A DNA stretch of 27,534 nucleotides from a virus. The stretch is from IMG/VR virus record IMGVR_UViG_3300023223_000479. One strand, written 5' to 3'. Every line of letters starts with the position of its first letter. Position 1 is the stretch's first letter. Shown piece after piece: positions 697-26,673 of the stretch. The position numbers and the translations under genes are program-made. Below the pieces are notes generated by a model, which had not been told where the DNA came from, made no database searches, and saw nothing but the letters and a program-made list of their open reading frames with translations.

Positions 697-1143
697 TATC
701 GCATAGCTAGCCTTAAGCCGATTCAATTGCTGCTTAATTCTTACTATATCTTTCCTGGAATTCTTAACCTCTGGTAACACCGATAACATAGATCCTACTA
801 ACTTATCAGCAGGTATATCATTAGCCTTAGCCCTACTTAATCCATCCCTACCTAGTAAAGATTCTACACTTAAAGATTTAAACTGAACATATTGGGCCGA
901 TACTATATTATCATTACTTCTCTGTAACTCATCCATAGCCCTCTCATAGTATAGTATCAAACCAGATAAAAATGATAGTGTAGGTAAAAACTCAAGCATT
1001 GTTTCCTCTGCTCCATAAGTGTTAATATCTGATAATGTAGAATTATCTATTATGGCTGTACCTGTAGTACCTCCATACTCTATAGCTACCTCATACACCT
1101 GTAAAAATTTTACATCTACTCCCTCTATTATTATGCCTCTCAT
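631..1143 (-). CDS. Helical protein, possible UvsY-like recombination mediator
   Basis: 170 aa with amphipathic coiled-coil helices (IKQQLNRLKASYAIVERVWETARSLNANER). Lies between the polymerase and SSB-like genes, with an ATGA overlap with the polymerase stop. Confidence 0.45.
   Translation of the reverse strand: MRGIIIEGVDVKFLQVYEVAIEYGGTTGTAIIDNSTLSDINTYGAEETMLEFLPTLSFLSGLILYYERAMDELQRSNDNIVSAQYVQFKSLSVESLLGRDGLSRAKANDIPADKLVGSMLSVLPEVKNSRKDIVRIKQQLNRLKASYAIVERVWETARSLNANERVERAG
1100..1114. repeat. Palindrome TGTAAAAWTTTTACA copy 1 (intragenic, near the 5' end of 631-1143)
   Basis: TGTAAAAATTTTACA, exact. Confidence 0.9.
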
Positions 1144-4100
1144 TTTGATTTCTTTTTACCTATTAATACTCCCGTACCATTATCCTGTAAATCAGCTAAA
1201 AGCTCCTCTCTTTTAAACTTTTCAATTTCTACTAAATCTTTCCAATTCTCGCCCACCTCTATATCTGATTTCATCTCTACATTATCGAACTCAAACCCAA
1301 AGTAGCTCTTATTAGGAGGGTTATTGAATGCCCTAACCATCCACCCCAAGTAACTATCCATCTGAGATCTCCTGATATATCCTAAAGCACTATCATGTAC
1401 TGTATTCAGTATATCCCCCTCATAATCTAAAATGCTCATCCTATCCTGGTGTACTATACAAGAAAATAATAATCCCTGACCACTGCTACCCTGGATAGGA
1501 CTATTCACAGATACCCGCTCATCAGAACTCCTATACTCCCTTGAGGATGAATTAATATAGGGTAGATGCCTCTTACTACCGTAGGCAGTTCTAACCCATC
1601 CATACCGCCTACCCTTAGCAATATACAATTCATGAGCCTTAGGTATATCAGGATGAAGGTTATTTAAGTAATCGCTATGTTGTGCTCTAGCCTGCTCCTT
1701 ACTAATATCAATACCATAATTAACCTTAGCATACTCCCTAAAGCTCTCAGCACTCATCTTATAGATCAATCCAAAATTCTTAGCCTTACCCTTAAACCTA
1801 TGATAATTTGCAGCCTCAGGATCATCCTGCATCATTATCTCATAATCCTCCAAACTAATATCTGTACCACTACAGGAGGCTAATGCATGTAGATCTACAT
1901 TGTTTCTAAAAGCCTCAGCCATAGTCTTAATCCTCCACAGAAACGTTAACCACCTTAACTCTGCCTGAGACAAATCCACCTGAAAAAACATATAAGGATC
2001 ATCCTGGTTAAAATCTACAGGGGTTTGAAACATTCTCTTAACATATCCTACTATCTCCTTGACCCTCTTCAACTTAGTCCTGCTAGGTATATTATGTAAG
2101 TTAGGATTTCTACTACTTATCCTTTGGGATTTCACAGTCTTAAACCTACTATGCACCCTATTATTCTCATCCAGTTTGCCTCTTATCCCCTCAAAGTACG
2201 TGCTCTTTACCGTAGACAATAGCCGGAACTCTAATATATTTTCAATTAGTCCAGTAGGATCAGGAAACAGGGATAGTATATCTTTATCCGTAGATGGGTA
2301 CGGGCCTACCTCCTTCTTATTCCTTCCTGTAGAGAAATCTTTTATAGTCCTGGTTACTACTGGCAACTCATAGTTTAACCCTGATGAACTCGTATAGATT
2401 AGTTTACCCAATTGAAGAGGAGAATTAAAATTCATCTCATAAAATAGTACAGTTTGGCCGGACCTGATAGAGTGTATTTTTCTAGCCCATGTAACAGGGT
2501 CTTTATAGGGGTAATCCTCTGAATAATAATTTTTAGCTAATACCTCTTTCCTCTTCTCGCATATAGTAGTATAGGTTTTCAAATGTACTTTATTCTCACT
2601 CTGCATTTTCTCCTTTTTTATCAAAAGCTCCTGCAATTTTTTCCTCTCAAAATTAGATATCTTTTCCTCTAATTCTCTGATTGCACCTCCCTCTATTGCC
2701 TCTCTCTCATACCTAACAAATGTTTTCACAATAGGCAAATTAACGAGTGTATTATTTATCTCCTCCAATAATACCTTACACTTATCTAAGCCCTCCTCCA
2801 TTACCTCAGTATTAACCGGCATACCTTTATACTCCATATCACCTAAAAGAGTTAGTTTAGATGTTTCATAATTCCTATATATCCGGTACAGCTTAGGATC
2901 TTTCATTAACTCGTACTCCAACAGGTATCTACCTCTTAAGGTTAAATCGTTATCAGTTGCACAATACTGACCTAAAGAGGCTAAAGGATCATTAGCATAA
3001 TCCACTCCCTCACCGTAACCCTCAAACTCTGGGTACATCTGAGGTATAATCTTTTTAAGCGCATGAGGGATATCCTCCCTCAGAGTATGATGCATTATTA
3101 AAGTATCATCTAGTCTACCTCTAAATGATAATCCCCACTCCAAACCTATAGTATAATCAAATTGAAAGTTATGGGCTACTTTCCTAATATCTGGGTTATC
3201 AAATACCTTATTGATTGTCGGTATTAGCACCTCATGTAACATAGATTCTATACCATTAGCCTTAGCATACTCCCAATTAATATACATAGCCCTAAAAAAA
3301 TCTTTATTCTCCTCACACATCACCACCACCTCATCGTTATACCTACGTATTAGCTCACCATTCTTACTCATCATTCTATCATCACCTACCCCACCCTTTG
3401 ATAATATCTCTAATACATCATTACACCCTATATTCCAGGGACTCTCACAATGCATCATAGGTAATATGTAACCGCTTCCTGGCTGAAAACTAATTCCCAA
3501 CATACTAGGCAATAGTTTTTTAAACTCTATTGAATGCTCTAGTATCTCCTTCTTACTTGTTAGCCCTTTCTGTTTCGGAAATGTCTCAAAGTCAAAGCAT
3601 ATCTCTTTTGTATCTTTGCAGTACTGTACAAGTGTATCCAGAGTAACAATGTCATTAACAAATACAGTTTTAGTCATTGTGGATACACTCTCAAACCCCA
3701 ATAAGGTATTATAGCATAATCCTACAGCCCTCTCTACTTTCTTAATATCCTCAACACTCTCAGGATCATCCTCAACTAAATAACAATTCTTAATTCTAAA
3801 CGATGAGGGGAAAGCCCAATAATCAATTAGATCCCCCTGCTCCTCAGTATATAACCTTTTCCTATTAAGCCTATACTGTATACTCGTATGATTACCAAAA
3901 TTTAGGAATGTAGTAACCTTTGCCCCAAACCCAATTATAGCTGACCAATCATCTCTATCAATAGTCTCTCCTCTCTTATCCTCCTTTTCCCAAGTATCCA
4001 ATGAGGTAACATACATTAAATCTTGTATTACCTGCCTTTGATTTTCCTTTAATCTCTTGATATCAGATATCCCATAAACACAATAACATAAGGATTCAAA

Positions 4101-4178
4101 TACTACCCTAGCTACCGCTCTGGTATACACATCATCCTTTTTATCGGATATAACTAATATAGGTTTATTTACTTTCAT
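1140..4178 (-). CDS. polA: Family A DNA polymerase with 3'-5' exonuclease and an extra N-terminal domain
   Basis: ExoI CFDFET, ExoII AHNFQFD, ExoIII YCATD; RISSRNPNLHNIP; motif A DLSQAELR; motif B RFKGKAKNFGLIY; NSPIQGS; motif C VHDS. Confidence 0.95.
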   Translation of the reverse strand: MKVNKPILVISDKKDDVYTRAVARVVFESLCYCVYGISDIKRLKENQRQVIQDLMYVTSLDTWEKEDKRGETIDRDDWSAIIGFGAKVTTFLNFGNHTSIQYRLNRKRLYTEEQGDLIDYWAFPSSFRIKNCYLVEDDPESVEDIKKVERAVGLCYNTLLGFESVSTMTKTVFVNDIVTLDTLVQYCKDTKEICFDFETFPKQKGLTSKKEILEHSIEFKKLLPSMLGISFQPGSGYILPMMHCESPWNIGCNDVLEILSKGGVGDDRMMSKNGELIRRYNDEVVVMCEENKDFFRAMYINWEYAKANGIESMLHEVLIPTINKVFDNPDIRKVAHNFQFDYTIGLEWGLSFRGRLDDTLIMHHTLREDIPHALKKIIPQMYPEFEGYGEGVDYANDPLASLGQYCATDNDLTLRGRYLLEYELMKDPKLYRIYRNYETSKLTLLGDMEYKGMPVNTEVMEEGLDKCKVLLEEINNTLVNLPIVKTFVRYEREAIEGGAIRELEEKISNFERKKLQELLIKKEKMQSENKVHLKTYTTICEKRKEVLAKNYYSEDYPYKDPVTWARKIHSIRSGQTVLFYEMNFNSPLQLGKLIYTSSSGLNYELPVVTRTIKDFSTGRNKKEVGPYPSTDKDILSLFPDPTGLIENILEFRLLSTVKSTYFEGIRGKLDENNRVHSRFKTVKSQRISSRNPNLHNIPSRTKLKRVKEIVGYVKRMFQTPVDFNQDDPYMFFQVDLSQAELRWLTFLWRIKTMAEAFRNNVDLHALASCSGTDISLEDYEIMMQDDPEAANYHRFKGKAKNFGLIYKMSAESFREYAKVNYGIDISKEQARAQHSDYLNNLHPDIPKAHELYIAKGRRYGWVRTAYGSKRHLPYINSSSREYRSSDERVSVNSPIQGSSGQGLLFSCIVHQDRMSILDYEGDILNTVHDSALGYIRRSQMDSYLGWMVRAFNNPPNKSYFGFEFDNVEMKSDIEVGENWKDLVEIEKFKREELLADLQDNGTGVLIGKKKSK

Positions 4179-4677
4179 CGTATACCCAATTATCGTTTTC
4201 TCTTTTAATTTTAGGGCTTCTCTCTATAGCCTCTAATAGTACATCTACAAGCTCATAATCCATAGAATTTAATACCTCCAATACGTCCCTCCTCAATGCC
4301 ACTCTTAGACGTTTTGTAGTTATTACATCGCCCTCCTTAGTCTTATCCTGAATAGTATTAATATATGTTTGTACAAGCTCTTTGCCATTCTCCTTAATCT
4401 CATTTTCATCATAGAAAGGATTGCCATCATAGTGCTCTGCTCTCAGTACCTCAATATTACCCTCTAAAGCCATCCTCTGAACACTCATACACACTAATGA
4501 TAAATGGCAAACCAAGCAATTCCTATCCCCTGAATCATATCCTACCTCTCCCGGCCCTTTACCAAACTCCCCACAAATATTCCTCCACCCTGGTATATCC
4601 TCCCTAACATCTTGATTCACTAACGGAACCCTTAAATCATATTTATCTTTATCTTTCTCTATCGGTACTTTATTCAT
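4165..4677 (-). CDS. Hypothetical protein with a Cys cluster (possible Zn binding)
   Basis: 170 aa; CGEFGK...YDSGDRNCLVCHLSLVC; overlaps the polymerase start. Confidence 0.7.
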   Translation of the reverse strand: MNKVPIEKDKDKYDLRVPLVNQDVREDIPGWRNICGEFGKGPGEVGYDSGDRNCLVCHLSLVCMSVQRMALEGNIEVLRAEHYDGNPFYDENEIKENGKELVQTYINTIQDKTKEGDVITTKRLRVALRRDVLEVLNSMDYELVDVLLEAIERSPKIKRENDNWVYDESK

Positions 4678-4681
4678 AGCC

Positions 4682-4696
4682 TGTAAAAATTTTACA
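4682..4696. repeat. Palindrome copy 2 (4 nt upstream of ATG 4677)
   Basis: TGTAAAAATTTTACA, exact. Confidence 0.9.
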
Positions 4697-4709
4697 CCTC
4701 TAATTCTAA

Positions 4710-4835
4710 TTAAAGATTACCCGTTAGCCTCAAACAAAACAAAACCATAACAAGTATCCAACCCATACCTAAAAATATATCCCACCAAATAGGTACTCCA
4801 ATATCTCCCGGCTCATCTTCATTAATTATAGGCAT
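4710..4835 (-). CDS. Small single-pass membrane protein (41 aa), below the ORF track cutoff
   Basis: MPIINEDEPGDIGVPIWWDIFLGMGWILVMVLFCLRLTGNL*, preceded by AAAAGGAGGT-taaca-ATG; fills the gap between palindrome copies 2 and 3. Confidence 0.6.
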   Translation of the reverse strand: MPIINEDEPGDIGVPIWWDIFLGMGWILVMVLFCLRLTGNL

Positions 4836-4861
4836 TGTTAACCTCCTTTTGTTTTATACGC

Positions 4862-4876
4862 TGTAAAAATTTTACA
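4862..4876. repeat. Palindrome copy 3
   Basis: TGTAAAAATTTTACA, exact; the 20-mer ctgtaaaaattttacacctc is identical to 4681-4700. Confidence 0.9.
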
Positions 4877-4900
4877 CCTCAATATACCCACAAATACTAA

Positions 4901-6631: not shown

Positions 6632-7597
6632 CTAAAATTGGTCTAATTTAGGTATTGATCTCTTTTGATTCTTAACCTCTCTTTTAACCTTATCCTTATA
6701 CTCAATATATCTATCTTTGGCTCCTGGTCCACACAAATATCCTAACTCTATATCTATATTCCTATCCCCTGAAAAGTTGCTATTATAGGCTTGTGTTTGA
6801 GCCTCTATCCACAAAGATATATATTTGGCTGATGCCTCAGGGGATGGATATTTAGCCTCACTCCTAGCCTCTATAAGCATCTCAAAGGCTACCAAAAACT
6901 TATACCTATATTTTATTGTGTTTGAGAATATATTAGTTACCCGCTCAGTAACTCTCATAAACTCTACAATCATAGTATCGGTGTAATCTCTATGAGAATC
7001 CCTGACTACCCTATAATACTCATTCAATAGAGATCCTGATTCTGTTTGTACGTTAGCATCTAAATAACTTTTTACTGAGAACTTTCTTTTGTTCCTCAAT
7101 AGAGGGGTTAGTATCCACACATATAGCTTATAGAATTCTCCTCTGTTCTTAGCAAATCTGGTAGCGCCTATAGACTTCCACGCCTCCTCTGCTAAATTCC
7201 ACAACGATATTAAATCCCCATAAGCCGCAGTACCCGCAATCAGTTTTTTAACAAATGCCCTATCATGTTTAAAGGGTAAATCCTTAGATACTCTTGCCTC
7301 AAATAATACATCATTCAATTGCTCCACATAATATTTAGGTACTCCTGATACTTGCTTTAATACCTGCGCTTTCTTTCTTCTATCCTTACCTGATACCTGT
7401 ATAACTATAGCACTCTCAGGTATACACTCTAACCCATCAGATTTCTTAGCCAACTCTAATACAAACTTTCTAATATTATTGGGTGTAAAATTTTTACAGG
7501 CTAATCTCATCATAGCCTGTACTGATCCCTCTTTTTGTATTAACTCAGTTAAAGCCTCTACACTCAATACCATTATAGGATTTTTGCCCTCACTCAT
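6632..7597 (-). CDS. Hypothetical protein in the replication module (basic, helical)
   Basis: 321 aa ORF abutting the helicase start; no recognisable motif. Confidence 0.75.
   Translation of the reverse strand: MSEGKNPIMVLSVEALTELIQKEGSVQAMMRLACKNFTPNNIRKFVLELAKKSDGLECIPESAIVIQVSGKDRRKKAQVLKQVSGVPKYYVEQLNDVLFEARVSKDLPFKHDRAFVKKLIAGTAAYGDLISLWNLAEEAWKSIGATRFAKNRGEFYKLYVWILTPLLRNKRKFSVKSYLDANVQTESGSLLNEYYRVVRDSHRDYTDTMIVEFMRVTERVTNIFSNTIKYRYKFLVAFEMLIEARSEAKYPSPEASAKYISLWIEAQTQAYNSNFSGDRNIDIELGYLCGPGAKDRYIEYKDKVKREVKNQKRSIPKLDQF
7484..7498. repeat. Palindrome copy 4 (intragenic, near the 5' end of 6632-7597)
   Basis: TGTAAAATTTTTACA, exact. Confidence 0.9.
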
Positions 7598-7637: not shown

Positions 7638-7652
7638 TGTAAAATTTTTACA
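7638..7652. repeat. Palindrome copy 5 (divergent intergenic region)
   Basis: TGTAAAATTTTTACA, exact. Confidence 0.9.
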
Positions 7653-7659
7653 GCCTAAT

Positions 7660-7690
7660 TAGGATAGTAATAGTTAAAAGCTTACCTTTG
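7660..7690 (+). promoter_or_regulatory. Bacteroidota-type promoter for 7717-8097
   Basis: TAG-N20-TACCTTTG; near-identical architecture at 25811-25841. Confidence 0.65.
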
Positions 7691-7716
7691 ATTATAACAA
7701 AAAAGAAATAACGATT

Positions 7717-8097
7717 ATGAAAACCACTAGATACCCTATTTTAAGCTACCAAAAAGATGGTCCTAACTGCTGGTCTTTTTATATGATAGAAAAAGGAGAA
7801 AAACCTGCAAGTATCGGACCTAAATACACAAAAGAAAAAGAGTTACTGGCAGATGTGAAAAGATTCTATACAGAAAGATTTTTAACCAATTGGCTTAAAC
7901 CCGAAAAACTTGAAGGTAAATTATCTTACGAAAGATGGGAGGAGTTATTTTATGATCAAGCTAATATTGAGTTTGCAGAATCAGGAGCAGATAGGGAGAT
8001 GAGCTTTAACTTGGAAAATGAGCTATTACGCCTGTATGAGAGGTACTGTAAATACTTTAAACTATATAATAAGTATTGTACTATTCACACCCATTAA
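7717..8097 (+). CDS. Hypothetical protein, counter-oriented moron-like gene
   Basis: 126 aa, A-rich initiation region, own promoter and downstream hairpin. Confidence 0.7.
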   Translation: MKTTRYPILSYQKDGPNCWSFYMIEKGEKPASIGPKYTKEKELLADVKRFYTERFLTNWLKPEKLEGKLSYERWEELFYDQANIEFAESGADREMSFNLENELLRLYERYCKYFKLYNKYCTIHTH

Positions 8098-8149: not shown

Positions 8150-9163
8150 CTACCACATCGATATGGCACCTCCTACAACCCCTCTGTAAGTCTTCTCCTC
8201 TCTCTTCTCTACCCTACTCAATTCATCGTAATAAGTGCGCTCATTGATCTCTATCATATCCCTGCTCAATACATAATCCCTACCCATCTCATTAGCATCT
8301 CCCTTATCCATATTTACAGCATATACCTTTTTACCCGCTGCCTGATATAACGTATAAGCAGCATGTATACTATCTCTCCATGCTCCCTCATCGAATAACA
8401 TATAGTAAGCGCTACAATTAAACCCACATAATTTCTTTAACTGATTTATAGATAAAGTCTTACCCTGTAATGCTGTAGCCTCTATCATTGTTAAATCATC
8501 CGCTATCCCCTCGCACACAAATACATCTCCTGTTAATACACAACAATTCCACTCATTGTACAATACATCAGATTTACCTAAAGGCACCTCATGCTCCTTA
8601 GGGTTTATCCATCTGTAATCACTTCTATTGGTCGCATCCCTGGCTTGATAATATACGAGCTTACCCGTATCATCTTTAAAGGGGAATATTATCCTCCTGA
8701 AATACTTACCGGATGTCTTGGAATAACCTATACCGTAATCCCTAACCAACTCCTTTATATTGAACCCTCTGCCTCTCATATACTCCCTAGCTTCCTCAGA
8801 TAACTTACCCTCTCCCTGATCCAAGGGTATAAATTCCTTAGGCAGTTTACAGTGTTTTGGCCTTTTTATTACTTCCTCATCTATAACTCTTCCTACTGTA
8901 GGTGTAAACCCATTGATTACCTTTCCTACCTCTGAGTAGCTTATATTCTCACAGAATTGAATATACTCAAGTACACTACTCCATGATGAGGAATAATCGC
9001 AACTACTCTGATAACATTTTATAGTGTTTGTTTCTTTATGGTAATAACCGGACCTACCTAAATCCTCTACACAACATGAGCAGGGGTAATGATAATACCT
9101 ACCTACTTTCTTTACCTGATGGGTAGTGCATAACCACTCAAAACATTTATCATTGAAACTCAC
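8150..9163 (-). CDS. dnaG: DnaG-type DNA primase (Zn finger + TOPRIM)
   Basis: CSCC...CYQSSC Zn finger, YMRGRGF, RIIFPF, YQARD, TOPRIM VCEGIAD, LFDEG, GDANEM. Confidence 0.9.
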   Translation of the reverse strand: MSFNDKCFEWLCTTHQVKKVGRYYHYPCSCCVEDLGRSGYYHKETNTIKCYQSSCDYSSSWSSVLEYIQFCENISYSEVGKVINGFTPTVGRVIDEEVIKRPKHCKLPKEFIPLDQGEGKLSEEAREYMRGRGFNIKELVRDYGIGYSKTSGKYFRRIIFPFKDDTGKLVYYQARDATNRSDYRWINPKEHEVPLGKSDVLYNEWNCCVLTGDVFVCEGIADDLTMIEATALQGKTLSINQLKKLCGFNCSAYYMLFDEGAWRDSIHAAYTLYQAAGKKVYAVNMDKGDANEMGRDYVLSRDMIEINERTYYDELSRVEKREEKTYRGVVGGAISMW

Positions 9164-9171: not shown

Positions 9172-9186
9172 TGTAAAATTTTTACG
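9172..9186. repeat. Palindrome copy 6 (1 mismatch), just upstream of the primase
   Basis: TGTAAAATTTTTACG. Confidence 0.85.
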
Positions 9187-9276: not shown

Positions 9277-9939
9277 CTACATCCTAGCCTCAAGAGTATC
9301 CATATTCAGTAACTCCTTACATGCATCCTCTATAATGGGCTTATCCAACCTCATTAAATATATATCCTCTGGACAATCTGTACCTTTAGGATCACACATA
9401 GCTCCAGGATATTCAATAAGCGTAACCCTTCGAGATAACCACCTAACAAACCTCATCCGCCTCTTCTTAACCTTATCGTGTAAAATACATTTAGGGATAA
9501 CCGTAACCAGCACCCCTCCAGGCATTAACAAACGATGATAATTATACCTGATATGGTCTATAATCTCATCGTCCTCAAAAGGAGGGTTTAATAATAAACA
9601 ATCAAAGTAATCATCATACCCCATCTTATGTAGAGAGAAACAATCTCTATTACTAACTCCTGGTACACCCATATCTAATACCGAGCATCTACTAGATACA
9701 AACATATTATACAATGCTATATCTATCTCATTATAAAAAGTATTAAACTCCTTAAGGACTTTTATCCCCCTTCTATTCCTATAAGCAGTAACATATGTAT
9801 TAATAAGTCTACCATACCCCCCACTGGTATCTCCCACAGCCTCAAACCTTCTATCTCCTAACATTGATACCATTAACTCAGCTACATATACAGGCGTTTC
9901 TTTAATCATACTCAAAGATACCAAAACCCTATATAACAC
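9277..9939 (-). CDS. N6-adenine DNA methyltransferase (gamma-class motif order); probable start ATG 9909
   Basis: Motif X ETPVYVAELMV, motif I GDTSGGYG, motif II NEID, motif IV LNPPF, LLMPGGVLVTVIP. Confidence 0.85.
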   Translation of the reverse strand: MLYRVLVSLSMIKETPVYVAELMVSMLGDRRFEAVGDTSGGYGRLINTYVTAYRNRRGIKVLKEFNTFYNEIDIALYNMFVSSRCSVLDMGVPGVSNRDCFSLHKMGYDDYFDCLLLNPPFEDDEIIDHIRYNYHRLLMPGGVLVTVIPKCILHDKVKKRRMRFVRWLSRRVTLIEYPGAMCDPKGTDCPEDIYLMRLDKPIIEDACKELLNMDTLEARM

Positions 9940-9993: not shown

Positions 9994-11142
9994 TTAAATT
10001 ACTCCTGAACCCTTAAGACCCCCACCATCAGGGTTATCCTGAAAATTCTGAGCCATGTAAATATTTTGCACAATATCCTCAAAAGGTAATTTCATTACCT
10101 GAGCATCAATCATAATCTGTACAATATCATCTACAATTGTACCGTTGAATCGCTTACCAAAACCCACACTCTTTTTATTAAACAAAATCTTAGAATCCTC
10201 ATCCTTAATATGGGCTGCAACTTTAGCACACTCCTCAGCGTATGAGTACCGCTCTGTACCTGCCGCTGATGAGGCTGCTGCCTGTACTGATGCTGCTGTT
10301 ACTGATCCTCCTGATGCCTCTGCCGTTGTTTGTGCTTGCGCTGCAATCTCCTCAGCACTCTTACCTCCTGTTTCTCCTGCTGATGCCAAAACTGCCGCCT
10401 TATTTGCTGCCGCAATAGATAACCACCCCTCCTCAATGCCCTTCAAAAGTTTTGGGTTACGGCCTGCCTTGAGGTAATAATAAACCAGTTCCCTGGTCAT
10501 ACCCATAGCATTGCCGATATCCGGTACACTCATATTATACTCATCCTCCAACTTAACAACATTAGCACATTTCTGGGTATTACTCCACTGCTTATGATTG
10601 TTGTTAGATATTTGACGCATCAATAATTCAGCCTCTTCTTTCTTTCCCTCAGGCTTCTTAATCAACTGTACAGCAACCAAAACTTTAGTACCATCAGTGC
10701 CGGGATACGCTTTCAAATCAAGTACCTTCCCTTCCTCATCTTTAACATTGCCTTTATTAACTTCCTGAATAGCATACATCCTACAAAATCCCTCAGCAAT
10801 ATTAACCTTAAATTGATACTTACCTCTGGCTTTAACATCAGTTACATAAGCCTCTACAGCCGTAGTCTGACCCTCTACAGCTATTTGTCTCTGCCGATCA
10901 ATAGGAGTATCAGCCTTAACCTGACTCTTATTACCTCTCGGATTAGTATTATAATTTACTATAATCTGAGGCAGAGGTAATAGTATAATCATACCGGGAA
11001 CAGGATTTTCGGGTAAACCAATTGGAATTGATCCCTCAGGACGTACAAATGCTGCTGTATCCTCTGACCCTGATACTTCAGTTGTATTACCTTCTACCGC
11101 CTCAGGAGCTTCTACTACAGGTGTTTCATTTTTCTTAGCCAT
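9994..11142 (-). CDS. ParB/Spo0J-family protein with HTH domain
   Basis: NTNPRG, GxxRxxA arginine patch (AEGFCRMYA), QISNNNHKQWS at the EN..R position, HTH MSVPDIGNAMGMTRELVYYYLK, LSIAAA; Ala-rich linker. Confidence 0.75.
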   Translation of the reverse strand: MAKKNETPVVEAPEAVEGNTTEVSGSEDTAAFVRPEGSIPIGLPENPVPGMIILLPLPQIIVNYNTNPRGNKSQVKADTPIDRQRQIAVEGQTTAVEAYVTDVKARGKYQFKVNIAEGFCRMYAIQEVNKGNVKDEEGKVLDLKAYPGTDGTKVLVAVQLIKKPEGKKEEAELLMRQISNNNHKQWSNTQKCANVVKLEDEYNMSVPDIGNAMGMTRELVYYYLKAGRNPKLLKGIEEGWLSIAAANKAAVLASAGETGGKSAEEIAAQAQTTAEASGGSVTAASVQAAASSAAGTERYSYAEECAKVAAHIKDEDSKILFNKKSVGFGKRFNGTIVDDIVQIMIDAQVMKLPFEDIVQNIYMAQNFQDNPDGGGLKGSGVI

Positions 11143-11201: not shown

Positions 11202-11233
11202 CAAATATATGTAAATAGTTTTACCTAATCAAA
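11202..11233 (-). promoter_or_regulatory. Bacteroidota sigma-A type promoter for the ParB-like gene
   Basis: Minus strand TTTG-attaggtaaaactatttaca (20 nt)-TATATTTG. Confidence 0.7.
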
Positions 11234-11249: not shown

Positions 11250-11264
11250 TGTAAAATTTTTACA
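11250..11264. repeat. Palindrome copy 7 (between the helicase stop and the parB-like promoter)
   Basis: TGTAAAATTTTTACA, exact. Confidence 0.9.
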
Positions 11265-13074: not shown

Positions 13075-13089
13075 TGTAAAATTTTTACA
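13075..13089. repeat. Palindrome copy 8
   Basis: TGTAAAATTTTTACA, exact. Confidence 0.9.
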
Positions 13090-13090: not shown

Positions 13091-13130
13091 AAAGAAATAC
13101 CCCTAGATAGTTGGCCGTTACCTAGGGGAT
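13091..13130 (-). terminator. Intrinsic terminator at the end of the morphogenesis genes
   Basis: Minus strand cccctag-gtaacggccaactat-ctagggg followed by tatttcttt. Confidence 0.6.
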
Positions 13131-13426: not shown

Positions 13427-13441
13427 TGTAAAATTTTTACA
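13427..13441. repeat. Palindrome copy 9
   Basis: TGTAAAATTTTTACA, exact; 2 nt after the stop of 13444-14010. Confidence 0.9.
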
Positions 13442-13443: not shown

Positions 13444-14010
13444 TCAATCATACTTAAATCTACCTCCAAATCCAGGCTGTACCGTACCCCATGATCCCAA
13501 AGCCTCATCATCCTCAAACTTATCCTCCTTACATTTGGGTTTGGGTAAGCAAGGGTATACCTTTTTATTGTCCTCCAACCATATTTTAAACATATCCAGC
13601 GACTCCTGAGCGGCTACCTTTAATCCTGATACAAAATTCTCAAACTGACCATCCTCAAATTTCTGAGGAAACTTTAAGCCCTCCTTAGATAATACAGCAT
13701 ATCCCGACTTTCTAACATACAAATACTCTGTAGCATCCACTAGAGTAGGGGTAGCCATCTCAATCAAATCTAACCACCTCTGCTCTATAGCTGTTTGATT
13801 ATTCTCGAAAGCCTTAATAGCATCACATATATCTTTGAAACAATCCCCTAGAGGCTTCTTTAGATAACGTATCTGAGCACCATCTAAATGCTTTAATACC
13901 TTATCTGGATTAAGATTAGATGTTAATAGCGTAGATTGGTTATAAAGACATTTCAATGTTATAAAGAAACATCTTGAAGCGCATTTAGTACATCCTCTTC
14001 CTGTTGACAT
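13444..14010 (-). CDS. Putative head-tail adaptor/connector (DUF6712-like)
   Basis: Directly downstream of the portal; AQIRYLKKPLG resembles the aQ...lkp.LG motif of Bacteroidota phage adaptor proteins. Confidence 0.5.
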   Translation of the reverse strand: MSTGRGCTKCASRCFFITLKCLYNQSTLLTSNLNPDKVLKHLDGAQIRYLKKPLGDCFKDICDAIKAFENNQTAIEQRWLDLIEMATPTLVDATEYLYVRKSGYAVLSKEGLKFPQKFEDGQFENFVSGLKVAAQESLDMFKIWLEDNKKVYPCLPKPKCKEDKFEDDEALGSWGTVQPGFGGRFKYD

Positions 14011-16977: not shown

Positions 16978-16992
16978 TGTAAAAATTTTACA
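16978..16992. repeat. Palindrome copy 10
   Basis: TGTAAAAATTTTACA, exact. Confidence 0.9.
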
Positions 16993-16999: not shown

Positions 17000-17021
17000 C
17001 CCTAACCCATATGAGCTAGGG
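17000..17021 (-). other. RNA hairpin just 3' of the capsid gene (no U tract; possible stability or attenuation element)
   Basis: Minus strand ccctagctc-atat-gggttaggg with G-U pairs. Confidence 0.4.
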
Positions 17022-17032: not shown

Positions 17033-18547
17033 TTACTGAGGATCAAGTGGTTGAGCAGGCTGAAATATCAACCTAGCAGGAGAGGCTTCTGTAAATGTAC
17101 CGGCTACCTGATCTAATCTGGAAATCTGGAAGCCCATATTAAACTTATTCTTAGTCCATGCCTCCTCACATTTCTCATCATATCCAGTCTTAATCTCAGA
17201 TACATCAGTTATTAAATCCGTACCTGCATGAAGATCATCAGGACGCGCAAACAGCATAAAATCATTAGGCATGAAATTCATCCTACTCAACGGAATACCT
17301 AAAAACGTAGGGCACCCTGGATTTATATCGCACTCCCCCAAAAAAGCCTTAGTAAGGGCTTTCTCTGCCTGTACCATAGCGTGCCAAATATTCCTTGCAA
17401 CCATCCAATTAGCACCAAACTCAGGGTCAAGCAAATCAGGGTTTTTACTTGCTATCTCCTCATGAAAAGCATTCATCAAATCAAATACATTACCCGATGT
17501 AACAGGAACTACATCCACACTAATAGGGGTATCAGCATCTACAAAAGGCTGAGTAATAGTAAGCACTACAGCAGCAGTACCCGTAACAGGAGAATTAGCA
17601 ACTAGGGTTTGATCCAAACAGATAAGAAACCCATCACAATTAGTAATGATTAATCGTACCTGCAAATCTACTCCAGGCTGTCCCTCTATATGTAGGGTTG
17701 TACCTCCTACATTAGATACATCAGTCCATAAGAGTACTCCATTCTGATCTACATACCCATTCAAAGGATCTGTAAGGTTAGTAACCACATCATCCAACGT
17801 AGTAGACAAATCAGTATTGAAAGGAATACTTACTCTTTGCCCGCCTAACAAGAACTCAATACAAGTACCCGTTAGATCACCTGAGAATACCCAATCATAA
17901 ATAGGAGGTAATGCAGCACCCATAGACTGAGCAGCAATCTTAAAATAACCGTCTGTATGGGCGTAATCCTCATGAGATCCGGCATAGTCCCCGTTGAACG
18001 CGTGACGGTCCCAAGTAGCCTTAGACTCTTTGAGCATTGCAATCTCCACCTCATCAGAAATAACAATCATATCCTCAGCAGCACGATGTACTCCCCTCCC
18101 TAATCCTCGCTGTCTCCAAGTCTTGATGAACTCGTTAATACAAAAGTCATCATCCTGGAAAACAGTTTGAATAGTAAGAAAACGATCTACCTTTTTACCC
18201 TTGGTAGTTGTACCTGCATCAAACCCACAATCAGTAGCACCCTTAGATGAATTAACCTTGGATTTAATTTTAGACTTAATCTCCTCTCTGAATAATCTTT
18301 GCCTTGTTTGTACATCCTCATGGAAAGTTACAAAACGTCTCCCATTACCCGCTACCTCATTGCTATCTGGAGCCTCATCCTCAAGTGGGATATCTATAGC
18401 TCCCTGTAGAATTTGGGCCTTAGCAAATACGCTTCTACGTATCATTATGGCATCCTCTACCGGATAGGTTTTAGCCTCAAACTCGTACCTATCTTTAATC
18501 GTGTGGGTGTGTCGGCAAGTGCCTAAATCACAAAGTTCGACTGACAT
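17033..18547 (-). CDS. Major capsid protein (HK97 fold) with an inserted domain
   Basis: Directly downstream of the prohead protease; DCGF, FCINEF..TW, AFNGD...DGYFK, FLGIPL...MP, DLHAGTDL are typical of Bacteroidota phage capsid proteins. Confidence 0.8.
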   Translation of the reverse strand: MSVELCDLGTCRHTHTIKDRYEFEAKTYPVEDAIMIRRSVFAKAQILQGAIDIPLEDEAPDSNEVAGNGRRFVTFHEDVQTRQRLFREEIKSKIKSKVNSSKGATDCGFDAGTTTKGKKVDRFLTIQTVFQDDDFCINEFIKTWRQRGLGRGVHRAAEDMIVISDEVEIAMLKESKATWDRHAFNGDYAGSHEDYAHTDGYFKIAAQSMGAALPPIYDWVFSGDLTGTCIEFLLGGQRVSIPFNTDLSTTLDDVVTNLTDPLNGYVDQNGVLLWTDVSNVGGTTLHIEGQPGVDLQVRLIITNCDGFLICLDQTLVANSPVTGTAAVVLTITQPFVDADTPISVDVVPVTSGNVFDLMNAFHEEIASKNPDLLDPEFGANWMVARNIWHAMVQAEKALTKAFLGECDINPGCPTFLGIPLSRMNFMPNDFMLFARPDDLHAGTDLITDVSEIKTGYDEKCEEAWTKNKFNMGFQISRLDQVAGTFTEASPARLIFQPAQPLDPQ

Positions 18548-18577: not shown

Positions 18578-18592
18578 TGTAAAAATTTTACA
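18578..18592. repeat. Palindrome copy 11
   Basis: TGTAAAAATTTTACA, exact. Confidence 0.9.
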
Positions 18593-18608: not shown

Positions 18609-20117
18609 TTAGATTCTATCTATGCTAGAAGATCTTTTACGGCCCTCATGCTTCCTATCCTTATCTCCCTCTTTATTATCTCCCTCACTCTTAGGATCAA
18701 TAGGATCTACCTTAGATTCTCCTGCCTTAGCAGCCAACTCGTTGTACTTGATAGCCAGCTTATTGTACTTATCAGCAGTAACCGTAGCCTCATCTCCCCA
18801 ATTCTCCTTATCTGCCTTAAGAGCGTCCCTCTCTTTAGTAGCTGTTACTAATTCCCCCTCTACCTCTGTTATTCGGGTAGCCTGGGTATCTGCTTTCTCA
18901 ATAGCAACAGTAGCCTCAGTTTCCAAAGTATCTACCTTAGTATTAGCCTCAGTCAAATCAGCCTTAACAGAATCCCTCTCCTCTGTGAGGGATTGAATCT
19001 CTGTAGCGTTTGTCTCAGCAGTTTGAGTAAGAGTAGTATTATCCGACTCCAACTTATCCATAGAAGCTCTGAGAGCGTTAGCCTCATCAGGGGTAAGCTC
19101 TACAGGCTCAGTAGTTGTGCTTTGACTTTTTGTGTACTTATCAAAAATTCCCATTTTCTTATTATTAGGAGTTACTTTAATCGTTTTCTTAGAAGTATTT
19201 CTTTTTCTTCTTGCAGATTTTACAGCATCTTGTAAAGATCCTATCTTATCTATAAGACCTAATTTCTTGGCATCTTTAGCCAAAAAAACCCTGCCTGAGA
19301 ATACTTTATCATCATCACTTAATTTCTTCCCTCTACCCTCTTTCACTGCCGCCTGAAACATTTTCCCAATGGGATTCAAAAACTTAGTAATTATCTCTGT
19401 TTTCTCTTCCTCAGATATTGCCCTAGTAGGTGGAGCAGCTATCTTATGAGTAGCATCATCGTTGGTTAGGAAAGTTATTTCTAAACCCTGATTGGTAAAG
19501 AAGCCCTCTCCATTGATATGCTGCATCACTACACCTATAGAGCCTACCTCTGAGGTTTGTCCTGATACAAATATTTCCTCTGTTTGAGATGCGGCCCAAA
19601 ACCCTGCACTAGCACACAAACCATCTACAAAAGATATTACCCGTTTCTTCTCGTTTGCATCTCTAATAGCTCTGGCTAAATCCTCTGTTCCATCTACTGT
19701 ACCTCCAGGAGTATCAAATACCAAAACAATACCAGATACTTGATCATCATCCGCTGCCTCCTTAACCAATCGTGTAACCCTGGATACTCCCGCTGTAGCA
19801 CTCATGGCATCCATATCAGCAGCCCTCTTAAACATAGTACCTATAACAGATATTATAGCTACATCCCCCTCTACATGTACTGAACCCATCCTAAATGTAT
19901 CCGACTCATCCAAATGTCCGGCTACAGGTCTTCCCCTCTTATCATCAAATCCTGCATACTTAGGAGTGTTCCGTTCCTTGTTCCCACTAAAATCATTATT
20001 CCTGTTACCCTGCATGATATTCATAGCAACAGACAGCAACTTTTCAGCGCTCTCAGGTCTTATAGCCCAAGTGCTCTGATATAGTAATGTTCCAAAGAAG
20101 GATATTCCAGTATTCAT
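18609..20117 (-). CDS. S49 (SppA/ClpP-like) prohead protease fused to a coiled-coil scaffold
   Basis: DTPGGTVDG, CASAGFWAAS, VGSIGV, SGRVF...A..LGLIDKIG; acidic heptad-rich C-terminus. Confidence 0.9.
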   Translation of the reverse strand: MNTGISFFGTLLYQSTWAIRPESAEKLLSVAMNIMQGNRNNDFSGNKERNTPKYAGFDDKRGRPVAGHLDESDTFRMGSVHVEGDVAIISVIGTMFKRAADMDAMSATAGVSRVTRLVKEAADDDQVSGIVLVFDTPGGTVDGTEDLARAIRDANEKKRVISFVDGLCASAGFWAASQTEEIFVSGQTSEVGSIGVVMQHINGEGFFTNQGLEITFLTNDDATHKIAAPPTRAISEEEKTEIITKFLNPIGKMFQAAVKEGRGKKLSDDDKVFSGRVFLAKDAKKLGLIDKIGSLQDAVKSARRKRNTSKKTIKVTPNNKKMGIFDKYTKSQSTTTEPVELTPDEANALRASMDKLESDNTTLTQTAETNATEIQSLTEERDSVKADLTEANTKVDTLETEATVAIEKADTQATRITEVEGELVTATKERDALKADKENWGDEATVTADKYNKLAIKYNELAAKAGESKVDPIDPKSEGDNKEGDKDRKHEGRKRSSSIDRI

Positions 20118-20142
20118 AATAGGTTGTGGAAAATCAAAGGTG

Positions 20143-20157
20143 TGTAAAATTTTTACA
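20143..20157. repeat. Palindrome copy 12
   Basis: TGTAAAATTTTTACA, exact (extends to GTGTAAAATTTTTACAC). Confidence 0.9.
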
Positions 20158-21110: not shown

Positions 21111-21125
21111 AATTTACCTCAACTT

Positions 21126-24100: not shown

Positions 24101-25637
24101 CAGCCGCTATAGCACCAAATAATACAGGAAATCTCTGTACTAAATCTACCGCACCTGAGAGTAAAGATATAAACCCTGTAAACCCTTGTACCACTAATCT
24201 AATAGCAGGCTCAAGGGAGTCAAATATATTCAATGCCAACCCCTCTACAGCAGAGGTAGCAGTATCTAAATCCCCTCTTACATCATCTCTTACTATAGCC
24301 GCCATATTAGCCGCTGATCCGGCTGCATTATTAAACTCCTTAGATAATCTCTCAACCTTATCAGAACCATCTAATATAGTGGCAAATGCCGCCGCTGACC
24401 TTACATCTGTTATAGCCAATATTTCAGCTAAATCAGTTCCAGAATCCTGTAGCTCTCTCAAACCTGCTACTAATTTCTCTCCTGAGTCTACACCATCTCC
24501 TAACCTCAACGATAGCTCACTTGTAGGATCAGCCAACTTTAAGAATACACTTCTCAAGGCAGTACCCGCCATTGACCCCTCAATGCCCGCATCAGTTAAA
24601 GCAGCTAAAAACGCTGTTGTATCCTCTATAGAAAATCCTAGCTGTTTAGCAATCGGTGCTATTGTCTTCATGGATTCCCTGAACTTGGTTAAATCCAATG
24701 CAGACCTTACAAAAGATTTAGCCATTACATCTGTAACCCTAACCAACTGAGTAGAATCTAATCCGAAGGCTCGTAATGTTTTAGCCGCTACCTCCCCTGC
24801 CTGAGCCAAGTCCTCACCCGTTACCGTAGCTAAATTCAGGGTAGCCTCTGTAGCGTCTAATATTTCCTGCTGATTGAATCCTAGCTTTGTAAGGACTATC
24901 TGTAATCCCCCTACCTGAGAGGCTGTAAATTCTGTAGCAGATCCTAAACGCTTGGCATCATCAATAAGAACATCAATGTTAGTGCCCTCATTTAGCGCTA
25001 ATAGAGTGGACCGGATACGGGCAAAATCTACTCCTGTAGTTATCAGTTGAGAGATTGCCTGTTTAGCCTTATTAACAATAGCAGTAACAGCAAAAGCAGC
25101 CAACAAGGTAGCTCCTACCTGTTTAAATGTAGCAGTTATATTATTACCTATCTCAGGGTAGTTACCTACATTTCTCTGGAATCTTCCACTAGCTGCCTCT
25201 GCCTCTATTAACTCCTGATTTAATTCTGCTGACTCCCTGGATAATCTCTCAAATGCTGGATTAGTTCTGCCGTCTACTGTTTGAGCAGTATTATCTAACT
25301 CTCTTCTGACACTTATTAGTCTTTGTCGGATATCATTTATACTACCCGCTGCTGCCGTACCTCTTCTTAGCTCCCTATTGAAGTCCTGTATTCTCTGTCT
25401 GCTTTGTGCAAATTGGTTTGTAAGGTTTGCCTGAGTAGAGGCTAGTGTTTCTGTATTACCCGTTGTTTGCTGTATCGCCTGATCTAGCTCATCATATGCC
25501 TCAGTCCCCTCCTCTGGTAAATCTTTTAGTAATTGCTGTAGCTCCTTTTGTTGCGCTATTAATTCCTGGGTAGATAAAGTAGCGGAATCCGTACCTACTA
25601 CTGTAATCTTATAGATTAATTCTTGAGTAATCGCCAT
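21126..25637 (-). CDS. Tail tape measure protein (TP901-like core); start revised to ATG 25637
   Basis: ~1500 aa helical; FQRNVGNY, AKRLGSATEFTASQV, GIEGSMAGTALR, hydrophobic segment, coiled coil, GPRHSQGGIPIEVEGGEF. The track's TTG start at 25679 runs through palindrome copy 13. Confidence 0.92.
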   Translation of the reverse strand: MAITQELIYKITVVGTDSATLSTQELIAQQKELQQLLKDLPEEGTEAYDELDQAIQQTTGNTETLASTQANLTNQFAQSRQRIQDFNRELRRGTAAAGSINDIRQRLISVRRELDNTAQTVDGRTNPAFERLSRESAELNQELIEAEAASGRFQRNVGNYPEIGNNITATFKQVGATLLAAFAVTAIVNKAKQAISQLITTGVDFARIRSTLLALNEGTNIDVLIDDAKRLGSATEFTASQVGGLQIVLTKLGFNQQEILDATEATLNLATVTGEDLAQAGEVAAKTLRAFGLDSTQLVRVTDVMAKSFVRSALDLTKFRESMKTIAPIAKQLGFSIEDTTAFLAALTDAGIEGSMAGTALRSVFLKLADPTSELSLRLGDGVDSGEKLVAGLRELQDSGTDLAEILAITDVRSAAAFATILDGSDKVERLSKEFNNAAGSAANMAAIVRDDVRGDLDTATSAVEGLALNIFDSLEPAIRLVVQGFTGFISLLSGAVDLVQRFPVLFGAIAAALGTYTAALIANRVATKLAVVQQVLYNGVMLLVGPLLSAASIATSLYIVATNLLTGTIGLATAAQQAWNVVLSVNPIVRVSIAVGALVGAVIALTSGTNRLTEAQKRQLELEEDLAKAIAQETVESEKLFRVAKDETLSRKERTEAIDEINKSYKQYLPNLLTEESSLEDIAKAQNAVNAALIQKIALQVREQQITASITRAIEDQQIASQELIRRTGISASQLRKVNEELSGFLRDTSDEQRQAILDSFSDIDSGLEVFVGRIAGGGGLSETVSNALNVIAEGGAEASVALVDLVGATVVLNDEVRDINDFFINNPSIPESIVGDGDGGVIDDTRKKLEDLRKEVAQFKKDQELTRTREEYDALQVKIDETEKLIRKITGASAKSIKSHESAVKALDKRIIKLNAAIAKEIELADAEAAGGEKSIEGLEVLRNQALERLDIRLAGFESERQALIKAGIDEDTLLQVTAEQRVSLIESINKEFDDKIAQATEKSTQDRIAREQKALEEVLDARLLQVQQNRLNEISLILEGDEEELANLEQLEEDKKLIEEKADQDRLDAQLDFINDQLAILELSAEDTLKLEQERLEILNNIKDLELDKVREVEEKKREEIKKSLEAQKQALDGFVSIVSSIKGVVEDQANTEINNLKRTQEQREQTSSDNLAAIEEEFEARALDIESKGFSTDEEKRLLDELALRKEKEIEEEKARSESEIKILQDQQKTQELIQKKAQLAEQKAQAIQSILDNATIARNNIVTLSNNLKAISEGAKIPFPANIAAIISIIAAIAAGIVSARKLTQSVSLESGGDTALLFAGGGDVPTKRYPARTRRKGYGGMHRGPRHSQGGIPIEVEGGEFEHNRWATELFYPLLQWTNHQGILRKQGRPFGDMSTLFGMVKSVGSNSMVNIPRVPVRAPKYRFQTGGAVTGVGGATNIVFQELAEGFEGLTREIAGVRDDLQTIDKSVQNQELVFSLIEQRKQEANLVRQETKSEL

Positions 25638-25641
25638 TAAT

Positions 25642-25656
25642 TGTAAAAATTTTACA
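25642..25656. repeat. Palindrome copy 13 (4 nt upstream of the tape measure ATG)
   Basis: TGTAAAAATTTTACA, exact. Confidence 0.9.
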
Positions 25657-25789: not shown

Positions 25790-25804
25790 TGTAAAAAATT
25801 TACA
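25790..25804. repeat. Palindrome copy 14 (1 mismatch)
   Basis: TGTAAAAAATTTACA. Confidence 0.85.
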
Positions 25805-25810
25805 TCAGTC

Positions 25811-25841
25811 TAGGAATTGTAATTAGGAAAGCTTACCTTTG
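25811..25841 (+). promoter_or_regulatory. Bacteroidota-type promoter for the plus-strand island
   Basis: TAG-N20-TACCTTTG; shares AAAGCTTACCTTTGnTTATA with the 7660-7690 promoter. Confidence 0.65.
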
Positions 25842-25846
25842 GTTAT

Positions 25847-26080
25847 ATGGAAAAGCAATTACAGCAACTTATAGATAAATACCCTCCTAACAATACTTCT
25901 TACGGACCTATAGATACTCATAAGGTTAAATTTTGTGGGGAATACGGGGAAAGCTCAGGGGAGTGTACATTATCTGAATTAGCTGAGTGGATTGAATTTC
26001 CTAACCATATCCGTTGTGTAAGTATTATTAGTGGGCGTGCTATTATTTGTGGAAAATTATACACTATAATTCCTGAGTGA
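25847..26080 (+). CDS. Hypothetical protein (plus-strand island)
   Basis: 77 aa, directly after the promoter. Confidence 0.6.
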   Translation: MEKQLQQLIDKYPPNNTSYGPIDTHKVKFCGEYGESSGECTLSELAEWIEFPNHIRCVSIISGRAIICGKLYTIIPE

Positions 26081-26301
26081 TTATGAAAGTAAAGGGAAAG
26101 ATTGTATTAGATAATGGAAGCGATTATTTTTTTGCGGATGACAAACATTATGGGTTTACTCCTTACATGGAGAATATAATGAAATCAGCTACACTTTTAG
26201 CCATAGATTTTAAAGTAAAGGTAAAAGTTATTAGGCTACTAAATAACTATAAAGAAGAAATACTATCTTCAATTAACTTTAATAGGTTTATAAATTATTG
26301 A
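26077..26301 (+). CDS. Hypothetical protein (plus-strand island)
   Basis: 74 aa, overlaps the previous stop; AT-rich. Confidence 0.55.
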   Translation: MIMKVKGKIVLDNGSDYFFADDKHYGFTPYMENIMKSATLLAIDFKVKVKVIRLLNNYKEEILSSINFNRFINY

Positions 26302-26303
26302 CT

Positions 26304-26656
26304 ATGTACGTTACTTATCAAACCCCCCCCCTTGGATTTTTGGGGGTAAACACCAACCACAAAAGACACTTGAAGCTATTATCGATTTAATAGAATCTAT
26401 TGGTGATATTCAACCAGGGCATTTAGGGGGAAATGCGATGGACAATATTTTTTTAAAAATAGATTGTTCTGGCTATAAAAAACAGGTTGTATTACCTAAA
26501 GAAACAGCGTTAATAATTAGGATGATATTAGATTCAGCAAAGGAGGATACTAAAGAAGCATATGAACAAGGTAAGAAAGATGGTGCTAATTTGCTTGCTC
26601 AACTAAGAGACGGTAATATATCTAGTTTTGATTTTGATCAGCAAACAAAATATTAG
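26304..26656 (+). CDS. Hypothetical protein probably split by a frameshift at a C9 tract (track calls only 26438-26656)
   Basis: The ATG 26304 frame stops at 26390. The 26438 frame is open back to 26294. One extra C in 26323-26331 joins them into 117 aa. Confidence 0.5.
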
Positions 26657-26658
26657 TC

Positions 26659-26673
26659 TGTAAAAATTTTACA
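26659..26673. repeat. Palindrome copy 15 (between convergent stops)
   Basis: TGTAAAAATTTTACA, exact; fills 15 of the 20 intergenic bases. Confidence 0.9.

Follow-up and report, generated by a model that had tools for sequence, protein, structure and literature searches.

Why should one short palindrome stand at gene boundary after gene boundary in a phage genome? The question is raised by a 27,534-nt piece of viral DNA, IMG/VR record IMGVR_UViG_3300023223_000479 (below, "the window" is this whole stretch), in which an earlier sequence-only reading had listed 15 copies of the 15-bp palindrome TGTAAAAWTTTTACA and proposed a phage-wide array of binding sites. A new scan of the 27.5-kb window returned the same 15 coordinates, comprising 13 exact copies and two copies with one mismatch (TGTAAAATTTTTACG at 9172 and TGTAAAAAATTTACA at 25790), whereas 100 dinucleotide-preserving shuffles of the window held no exact match. 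A sixteenth match, with two mismatches, lies at 10056 to 10070 within the open reading frame (ORF) of a ParB-like protein (0.23 expected at two mismatches or fewer) and is probably a chance look-alike. The array itself is real, strongly selected, and set at gene boundaries.

We lean toward the view that the copies form a duplex-DNA site array for some phage protein. Our more specific proposal, to which we give a little less than an even chance, is that they are duplex-DNA sites for a dimeric phage protein, with the ParB/Noc/KorB-like product of 9994 to 11142 as the candidate reader. A dimeric DNA-binding array is favored over a plain promoter by a dyad symmetry that reaches the central base and a negligible RNA hairpin, by conservation at synonymous sites where copies lie in ORFs together with replacement of the whole array from lineage to lineage at orthologous junctions, and by a ParB-family protein encoded in the window, with a copy upstream of its gene in five lineages. 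The sequence-only reading is therefore supported in part, namely in its genome-wide array for a dimeric DNA-binding protein as opposed to a plain promoter; the functions that it offered for such an array (parS/NBS-like loading, a stoperator-like roadblock, or recombination) are candidates among which the computation makes no choice.

Conservation in a close relative

The closest comparison is with G001, a complete 85,758-bp phage genome with terminal repeats and the sole close relative found in IMG/VR. Among cultivated phages, no close relative was detected by megablast or tblastn against 50,697 phage records, a first metagenome scan with a capsid profile found no relatives, and a word-index protein search returned only the window genome and G001. 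The window is collinear with G001 from 22.8 to 52.9 kb, with protein identities of 62 to 77% (polymerase, 62%; capsid, 77%), and G001 carries 44 exact and five one-mismatch copies of the motif.

Ten window copies share their junction with a G001 copy, standing as conserved islands in diverged spacers. Paired motifs are identical apart from a free central base and three variants at outer positions (window 9172; G001 34292 and 42116), and anchored flank identity across the eight intergenic pairs is 16 to 49%. At the two copies within ORFs, 11 of 11 codons are identical, compared with a background of 53% for codons of identical residues elsewhere in those genes. Although coding sequence makes up 91% of G001, only two of its 44 exact copies fall deep within ORFs. 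Taken together, the pairing with G001, the codon conservation, and the rarity inside ORFs argue that the motif sequence is under selection and that it is placed at gene boundaries.

Anatomy and placement of the sites

Anatomy was counted over 64 sites, comprising the window and G001 copies read on the coding strand. Symmetry reaches the innermost pair (A7 in 64 of 64 sites, T9 in 63 of 64) around a free central base (33 A, 30 T), and three of the seven one-mismatch variants alter the outermost position, T1 to C or A15 to G. An extended form of the motif that had been described from the window alone is borne out as a tendency over these sites and is not invariant: position −1 is G in 69% of sites, −3 is a purine in 91%, +1 is G in 61%, and +3 is T in 67%. 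Either G or C occupies −1 and +1 in 83 to 84% of sites, and the coding strand itself is very C-poor.

Placement follows two patterns. In the first, the upstream gene stops within the TAA of the motif (eight cases, in G001) or, as a second mode, 3 nt ahead of the motif, and downstream starts show a sharp mode 3 nt past it (11 cases). These stop and start modes of 3 nt suggest that the core with 3 nt on each side acts as a symmetric 21-bp unit between genes. In the second pattern, copies lie ahead of host-type promoters, with the TAnnTTTG box 37 or 38 nt (seven cases), 47 or 48 nt (four cases), or 58 nt (one case) from the motif center. Other center-to-box distances were 34, 34, 45, and 52 nt, and relatives of the wider clade described below gave 38 nt (L180) and 39, 44, and 60 nt (L051). 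These distances hint at a 10-bp phasing of motif center to TAnnTTTG, many of the cases being copies of one promoter cassette. Blocks of genes inverted onto the plus strand have a copy and a promoter at their head, and the larger block (25847 to 26656) also has a copy at its tail. Terminator-like hairpins precede two of the window copies (13075 and 16978).

Both plus-strand blocks open alike (7638 to 7716 and 25790 to 25846), with the palindrome, 5 to 7 nt, TAGGA, and then AAGCTTACCTTTG. A related module, ATTAGGA-n10-AACCTTACCTTATCTTTGG, is reused at least seven times in G001, twice with a 10-nt insertion.

As RNA, the motif would fold into a hairpin of −1.0 to −1.8 kcal/mol (z, −0.8 to −2.3) with no U-run; in two native contexts other folds are more stable than this hairpin, and the flanks add nothing to its stem. 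The innermost pair would fall in the hairpin loop, yet it is invariant. The motif is not an intrinsic terminator or a stable hairpin of the repetitive extragenic palindrome (REP) type. The weak hairpin, the invariant inner pair, and the selection on in-ORF copies favor a two-fold symmetric protein that recognizes the motif as duplex DNA.

Different palindromes at the same junctions in the wider clade

Thirty-nine relatives emerged from an exhaustive HMMER search based on the capsid profile, and the contigs of twelve of these were examined. The syntenic contig L047 (56% G+C) has eight copies of a different palindrome, TTAAACWGTTTAA, situated ahead of the tape-measure gene, the post-capsid gene, and the primase gene, past the DnaB stop, and, in three cases, inside ORFs. 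Contig L049 has seven copies of TTAAAGNNCTTTAA, at junctions that include the capsid, post-capsid, and post-DnaB ones, and L051 has three copies of CTTAAAAAWTTTTTAAG. The capsid protein of L057 is only 28% identical, yet this contig keeps five copies of YGTAAAASTTTTACR. Two copies of CTAAAAAWTTTTTAG are present in L180 (63% G+C), which came from a DnaB-based metagenome scan; one lies 3 nt ahead of an ATG, and the other lies past the DnaB stop, its center 38 nt away from a TATATTTG box. All five palindromes are far above chance. They are 13 to 17 bp long, and the variants share a TAAAN-n-NTTTA core, with a distribution that does not simply track the capsid tree. This switching of whole sets of sites at conserved junctions argues for a sequence-specific, phage-encoded factor, as in a coevolving protein-site pair; the cognate stoperator sets of related phages likewise differ and track the repressor (PMC6550527).

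No palindrome array was found in the DNA examined from L044 and L048. In L050, which is also without one, a direct repeat (AACTACTACAAAAA) abuts the ATG of the capsid gene and that of the gene after it (1447 to 1472 and 3052 to 3065) and is a different lineage-specific leader at the same junctions. Three copies of a palindrome, YCCCATWATGGGR, occur in L052 (2224 to 2236, 2311 to 2323, and 6437 to 6449), two of them within long perfect inverted repeats (TGTACAA...TTGTACA) at the junctions flanking the capsid module. Terminator-like hairpins of −15 to −24 kcal/mol (z, −4 to −8) are found in L049 (19392 to 19450), L055 (2384 to 2440), and L057 (8362 to 8420 and 6360 to 6410); they share a near-identical apex (UGUAAAAG, or UGUAAAAAG in L055) that equals a half-site of the window palindrome.

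A ParB-like protein as candidate reader

The product of 9994 to 11142 (minus strand) has an N-terminal ParB-type domain and a helix-turn-helix (HTH), and it matches PHROG 1033, "ParB-like partition protein" (E = 1.2e-9). Its L049 orthologue gives weak matches to Pfam ParB_N and HTH_24 (both E about 1e-4; ParB_N below the curated cutoff), and the L180 protein aligns with the family profile at 96% probability. Nearly all of the top Foldseek matches, from a low-confidence model, are ParB, Noc, KorB, or Spo0J, and solved ParB structures gave no match at the sequence level. Orthologues are encoded in five lineages (the window, G001, L047, L049, and L180), with N-x-R and GF-x-R invariant across all five.

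Gene order ties this protein to the sites. The common order in the five lineages is a DnaB-like gene, the palindrome of that lineage, and the ParB-like gene, so that a palindrome stands ahead of the ParB-like gene in 5 of 5 lineages with four different site sequences; in L047, this copy is 11 nt from a TATCTTTG box. Since it is always the site of the current lineage that lies in front of this DNA-binding gene, the gene looks autoregulated. The flanking genes in the window are DnaB-like and methyltransferase genes, and downstream of the ParB-like gene a primase gene occurs in 5 of 5 lineages and a methyltransferase gene in 3 of 5. The methyltransferase-like gene of the window (9277 to 9939) is of the N6-adenine type, with an NPPF motif. 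It follows the ParB-like gene, an arrangement that G001 and L047 retain and L049 lacks, and the pair resembles a split form of phage ParB-methylase fusions.

How such a protein might act can be outlined from the sites. Between the TGTA and TACA arms, which are separated by roughly one turn of the helix, is an A-tract/T-tract core, and each arm could take one subunit, as would fit a two-fold symmetric dimer. Bound at the roughly 50 sites per genome that mark the edges of expression units (past stops, abutting starts, before host-type promoters, and at the ends of inverted blocks), the protein, possibly as a loading and sliding ParB-style clamp, would control or insulate transcription units, its own gene included, in a mode comparable to that of KorB on plasmid RK2 or to that of stoperators. 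We infer both the binding of the 9994 to 11142 product to the sites and the effect of that binding. Clamp behavior driven by CTP is uncertain because the arginine patch is degenerate compared with GERRxRA. Neither ParA nor CbiA was found among the Pfam families of 102 G001 proteins or the separately tested large proteins, and no integrase or repressor families were detected in G001. The lack of ParA and integrase in G001 makes a classical partition or lysogeny-immunity role unlikely.

A more far-reaching scenario, which we consider speculative and doubtful, would have an orphan ParB-family clamp loading at about 50 palindromes and patrolling the phage chromosome as a KorB-like network in a virulent Bacteroidota phage, where it might insulate or time transcription or carry the neighboring N6-adenine methyltransferase, site and reader codiversifying as a private address code.

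Several observations weigh against the proposed reader or against a DNA site as such. The AlphaFold model of the 9994 to 11142 product is of low confidence (pLDDT, the predicted local distance difference test, is 51). Recognition helices differ at five positions between the window (TRELVYYYLKA) and G001 (GRTAVHYYLRA), two phages with the same motif. The window protein has GFCRMYA at its arginine patch, three relatives have GFRR, and L180 has GFVR, the third arginine being absent. An array is present in L051, and the 13.9-kb contig has no ParB-like gene. A winged-HTH protein is also encoded in G001 (61243 to 62121). With regard to the sites, the flanks have no two-fold symmetry, the coding strand having G both before and after the core; a start codon lies within 11 nt of 28 of the 64 copies; the coding strand of five of six asymmetric variants has U..G and not C..A, the preference expected of an RNA hairpin; and three L057 copies sit at the apex of strong terminator-like hairpins.

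Alternative explanations

It is possible, though unlikely, that the element acts in the transcript, either as a protein-bound RNA stem-loop in processing or translation control or as an A-rich initiation leader. The abutment of start codons, with its mode of 3 nt, would suit such a role, since this spacing puts the A-tract at −12 to −15 and an A at −6, and A residues at such upstream positions are positive determinants of initiation in Flavobacterium johnsoniae (PMC6847099). The preference for a U-G pair among the asymmetric variants points the same way, as do the L057 elements atop strong hairpins and the loop of the UGUAAAAG type on hairpins of L049, L055, and L057. Against this stand the weakness of the free hairpin (just −1.0 to −1.8 kcal/mol) and the invariance of an innermost complementary pair that is useless to a hairpin. 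A 2-nt spacing would suit the A rule about equally, yet it is never seen; some copies are placed relative to promoters and not to stops; and copies in ORFs are under selection, with 25 to 37% of copies lying in ORFs in the one pair of relatives where this was countable. The abutment of start codons and the recurrent TAnnTTTG spacings of 37/38, 47/48, and 58 nt nevertheless keep an expression-linked or RNA-level role alive, by itself or alongside a DNA-level one. A hairpin-bridged Shine-Dalgarno sequence, in the style of T4 genes 38 and 25, was rejected on account of the −1 to −1.8 kcal/mol hairpin and of the lack of a Shine-Dalgarno sequence at most genes without the motif.

Rather less likely is the same array of DNA sites with a different reader, either the 292-aa winged-HTH protein of G001 or an unrecognized small protein. 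The former is MarR/Crp-like, and such proteins bind palindromes as dimers; the variation of the ParB-like recognition helix between two phages with a common motif and the occurrence of L051 sites on a contig without a ParB-like gene would both be accommodated. However, no homologue of the winged-HTH protein was found in the window or in any relative locus examined, and the ParB-like gene is the sole DNA-binding gene shown to have an upstream site in five lineages.

We regard as improbable a phage-specific promoter or initiator, used by a phage sigma factor, activator, or RNA polymerase, with transcripts starting at the 3′ edge of the motif. A copy stands ahead of most expression units, among them the capsid, protease, and tape-measure genes, with no other conserved upstream element; G predominates at +1; some copies come after terminator-like hairpins, where the space is too short for a second promoter; and the motif sequence is lineage specific, as are the promoters of the T7 group. 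Nevertheless, a perfect palindrome would fire both ways, and nearly all of the genes are on one strand. Spacings of 3 to 4 nt would yield nearly leaderless mRNAs at many genes, and copies are found as well in front of complete host-type promoters and in a gap where two stops converge. A scan for sigma-70-type promoters was at chance (73 found versus 69 expected), and this candidate was rejected. So was a promoter for a phage RNA polymerase, as no polymerase or sigma family was found among the large or small proteins of G001.

Recombinogenic or selfish short repeats at cassette junctions, kept alike by recombination with no trans-acting reader, are the least probable explanation: gene gain and loss between the window and G001 does coincide with copies (the 4682 to 4876 cassette and the plus-strand blocks at 7638 and 25790 to 26673), and Cluster O repeats behave likewise (PMC4351075), but 15 bp is very short for homologous exchange, in-ORF copies are conserved at synonymous sites, and recombination alone does not explain how other lineages exchange the sequence throughout the genome and yet retain the orthologous positions.

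The window genome and its individual copies

The window is a phage fragment with almost all genes on the minus strand. PHROG matches name a polymerase, two helicases (one DnaB-like), a primase, a methyltransferase-like protein, the ParB-like protein, a portal protein (weakly), and a prohead protease. The polymerase was assigned to family A through its tblastn relatives, the major capsid gene was identified by synteny and relatives, and the tape-measure gene was identified by the PhageMin_Tail match of its orthologues. Rfam and tRNA scans of the window found nothing. Shine-Dalgarno sequences are missing from most genes that have no copy of the motif, which is the expectation for Bacteroidia (PMC6847099). 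This lack, the TAnnTTTG boxes, and a Por_Secre_tail domain in a G001 protein together point to a Bacteroidota host, and the phage looks lytic (virulent). The G001 protein in question (353 aa; 49610 to 50671) is encoded next to the tape-measure gene and has its C-terminal Por_Secre_tail domain, a type IX secretion sorting signal, at E = 1e-5, just under the Pfam cutoff. Another G001 product, an 856-aa orphan protein (72353 to 74923) with a motif copy 3 nt ahead of its ATG, had no match in Pfam, PHROGs, PDB sequences, or the ESM Atlas.

The spacings to starts and stops that had been read from the sequence hold at every copy for which they were given. Two copies lie within the 5′ parts of ORFs. 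The copy at 1100 to 1114 covers codons 10 to 15 (VDVKFLQ) of ORF 631 to 1143, with its orthologue at G001 24379 (6 of 6 codons identical), and that at 7484 to 7498 covers codons 34 to 38 (CKNFT) of ORF 6632 to 7597, with its orthologue at G001 30842 (5 of 5 codons identical; flanking synonymous sites differ). The copy at 4682 to 4696 is 4 nt upstream of the ATG at 4677 (a 170-aa gene), and its orthologue, G001 27963, is 3 nt ahead of its ATG, with flanks 27 to 31% identical. That at 4862 to 4876 lies 26 nt upstream of a 41-aa ORF (4710 to 4835) and pairs with no G001 copy. This small ORF has a strong Shine-Dalgarno sequence, AAGGAGGT, and is bracketed by the 4682 and 4862 copies with extended identical flanks (window 4681 to 4880). 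No matching ORF was found in G001, which has an 88-aa ORF (28009 to 28275) at the corresponding place, and the 41-aa ORF looks like a cassette swapped at repeats.

In the replication region, the copy at 7638 to 7652 occupies a divergent gap upstream of the promoter of a plus-strand gene (7717 to 8097), whose predicted Bacteroidota-type −7 box, TACCTTTG (7683 to 7690, plus strand; a consensus match), is 38 nt from the center of the copy. The one-mismatch copy at 9172 to 9186 (CGTAAAAATTTTACA on the coding strand) is 8 nt ahead of the primase GTG at 9163 and has its G001 counterpart at 32210. The copy at 11250 to 11264 lies 3 nt past the DnaB-like stop at 11268 and 107 nt upstream of the ParB-like ATG, with its center 48 nt from a TATATTTG −7 box (11202 to 11209, minus strand) that has TTTG 20 nt upstream and belongs to the predicted promoter of the ParB-like gene. 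The copy at 13075 to 13089 is 37 nt upstream of the DnaB-like ATG at 13037 and just downstream of a terminator-like hairpin (13100 to 13128), and that at 13427 to 13441 is 2 nt past the stop of 13444 to 14010; in its G001 counterpart (36893), the TAA of the motif is the stop of that gene.

Among the structural genes, the copy at 16978 to 16992 is 22 nt upstream of the post-capsid ATG at 16955 and downstream of a hairpin at 17000 to 17021, at a junction also occupied in G001, L047, and L049. The major capsid ATG at 18547 is preceded at 30 nt by the copy at 18578 to 18592, whose orthologue is the TACG variant at G001 42116, and the L049 capsid gene is preceded by its own palindrome. The prohead protease ATG at 20117 is preceded at 25 nt by the copy at 20143 to 20157 (G001 counterpart, 43705), and the tape-measure ATG at 25637 is preceded at 4 nt by the copy at 25642 to 25656, a junction also occupied at G001 49482 and L047 2520. 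The one-mismatch copy at 25790 to 25804 is upstream of the promoter of the plus-strand block 25847 to 26656, with a TACCTTTG box (25834 to 25841) 37 nt from its center. That block is closed by the copy at 26659 to 26673, which does lie, as first described, between convergent stops (26656 and 26677).

Implications

Genome-wide palindromic repeats occur in several phage groups, and those of Cluster O have been unexplained since 2015. The clade considered here offers a tractable case, with a named candidate reader, at least five site variants at the same junctions, and a clear autoregulatory arrangement. Should these sites prove to be bound by the ParB-like protein, global regulation by the ParB family would extend from plasmids and integrative elements (KorB and BisD) to lytic phages, and a role would be suggested for orphan phage ParB-like genes and adjacent methyltransferases. 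Compact orthogonal protein-operator pairs for Bacteroidota may be of practical value.

Comparison with known systems

No published occurrence of the motif or its variants was found in the literature searched, and a 17-mer scan of 185,579 species genomes gave, among the matches listed, only single and taxonomically scattered ones. Noc with its Noc-binding sites (NBS) and ParB with parS share with the present system a ParB-family fold (by Foldseek, from a low-confidence model) and palindromic sites. Noc has many dispersed sites and no ParA partner. The sites of Noc and ParB are of even length and often lie within genes, and these proteins serve control of the chromosomal division site or segregation, whereas no membrane-binding or partition role is indicated here.

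The stoperators of Cluster A phages are alike in having tens of genome-wide sites, with cognate sets that differ among related phages, and they act on transcription elongation as well as on promoters (PMC6550527, PMC9283540). They are asymmetric 13-bp sites, in one orientation to transcription, for a monomeric immunity repressor of temperate phages. Here, in contrast, the core is a perfect palindrome, its center is A or T about equally (33 A, 30 T), and neither an integrase nor a repressor family was detected in G001.

In form, the nearest published counterpart is the 17-bp dyad repeat found in mycobacteriophages of Cluster O, TGTTCGGNNNCCGAACA, which has two 7-bp inverted arms and more than 30 near-invariant copies per genome, many of them in short intergenic gaps or near gene 5′ ends, with copies bounding indels; its function is unknown, and its authors propose a dimeric DNA-binding protein (PMC4351075). 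Sequence, host, and phage lineage are unrelated, and the center is 3 nt there and 1 nt here. At least 90% of the present copies lie outside ORFs, whereas about one third of those in Corndog are clearly inside genes. A candidate reader and lineage-specific replacement of sites are shown here and not for Cluster O.

Plasmid RK2, of the IncP group, carries about a dozen OB sites, and operators of its KorB protein also lie in the operon of the regulator itself. As in our proposal, the protein is of the ParB family, the sites are short palindromes of odd length with a degenerate central base, and multiple copies are dispersed over a mobile genome, near or far from promoters. The OB core reads TTTAGCGGCTAAA in a quoted oligonucleotide (PMC11790492). 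The present case differs in its approximately 50 sites, its lytic-looking tailed phage, the lack of a detected ParA/IncC or KorA-like partner, the degenerate arginine patch, and a binding and a CTP dependence that are putative. Another ParB-like clamp is reported to act as a long-range activator on an integrative element (PMC12409273). In proposed mechanism, KorB with its OB operators (PMC11790492) would be the closest known system to the palindrome array of this phage.

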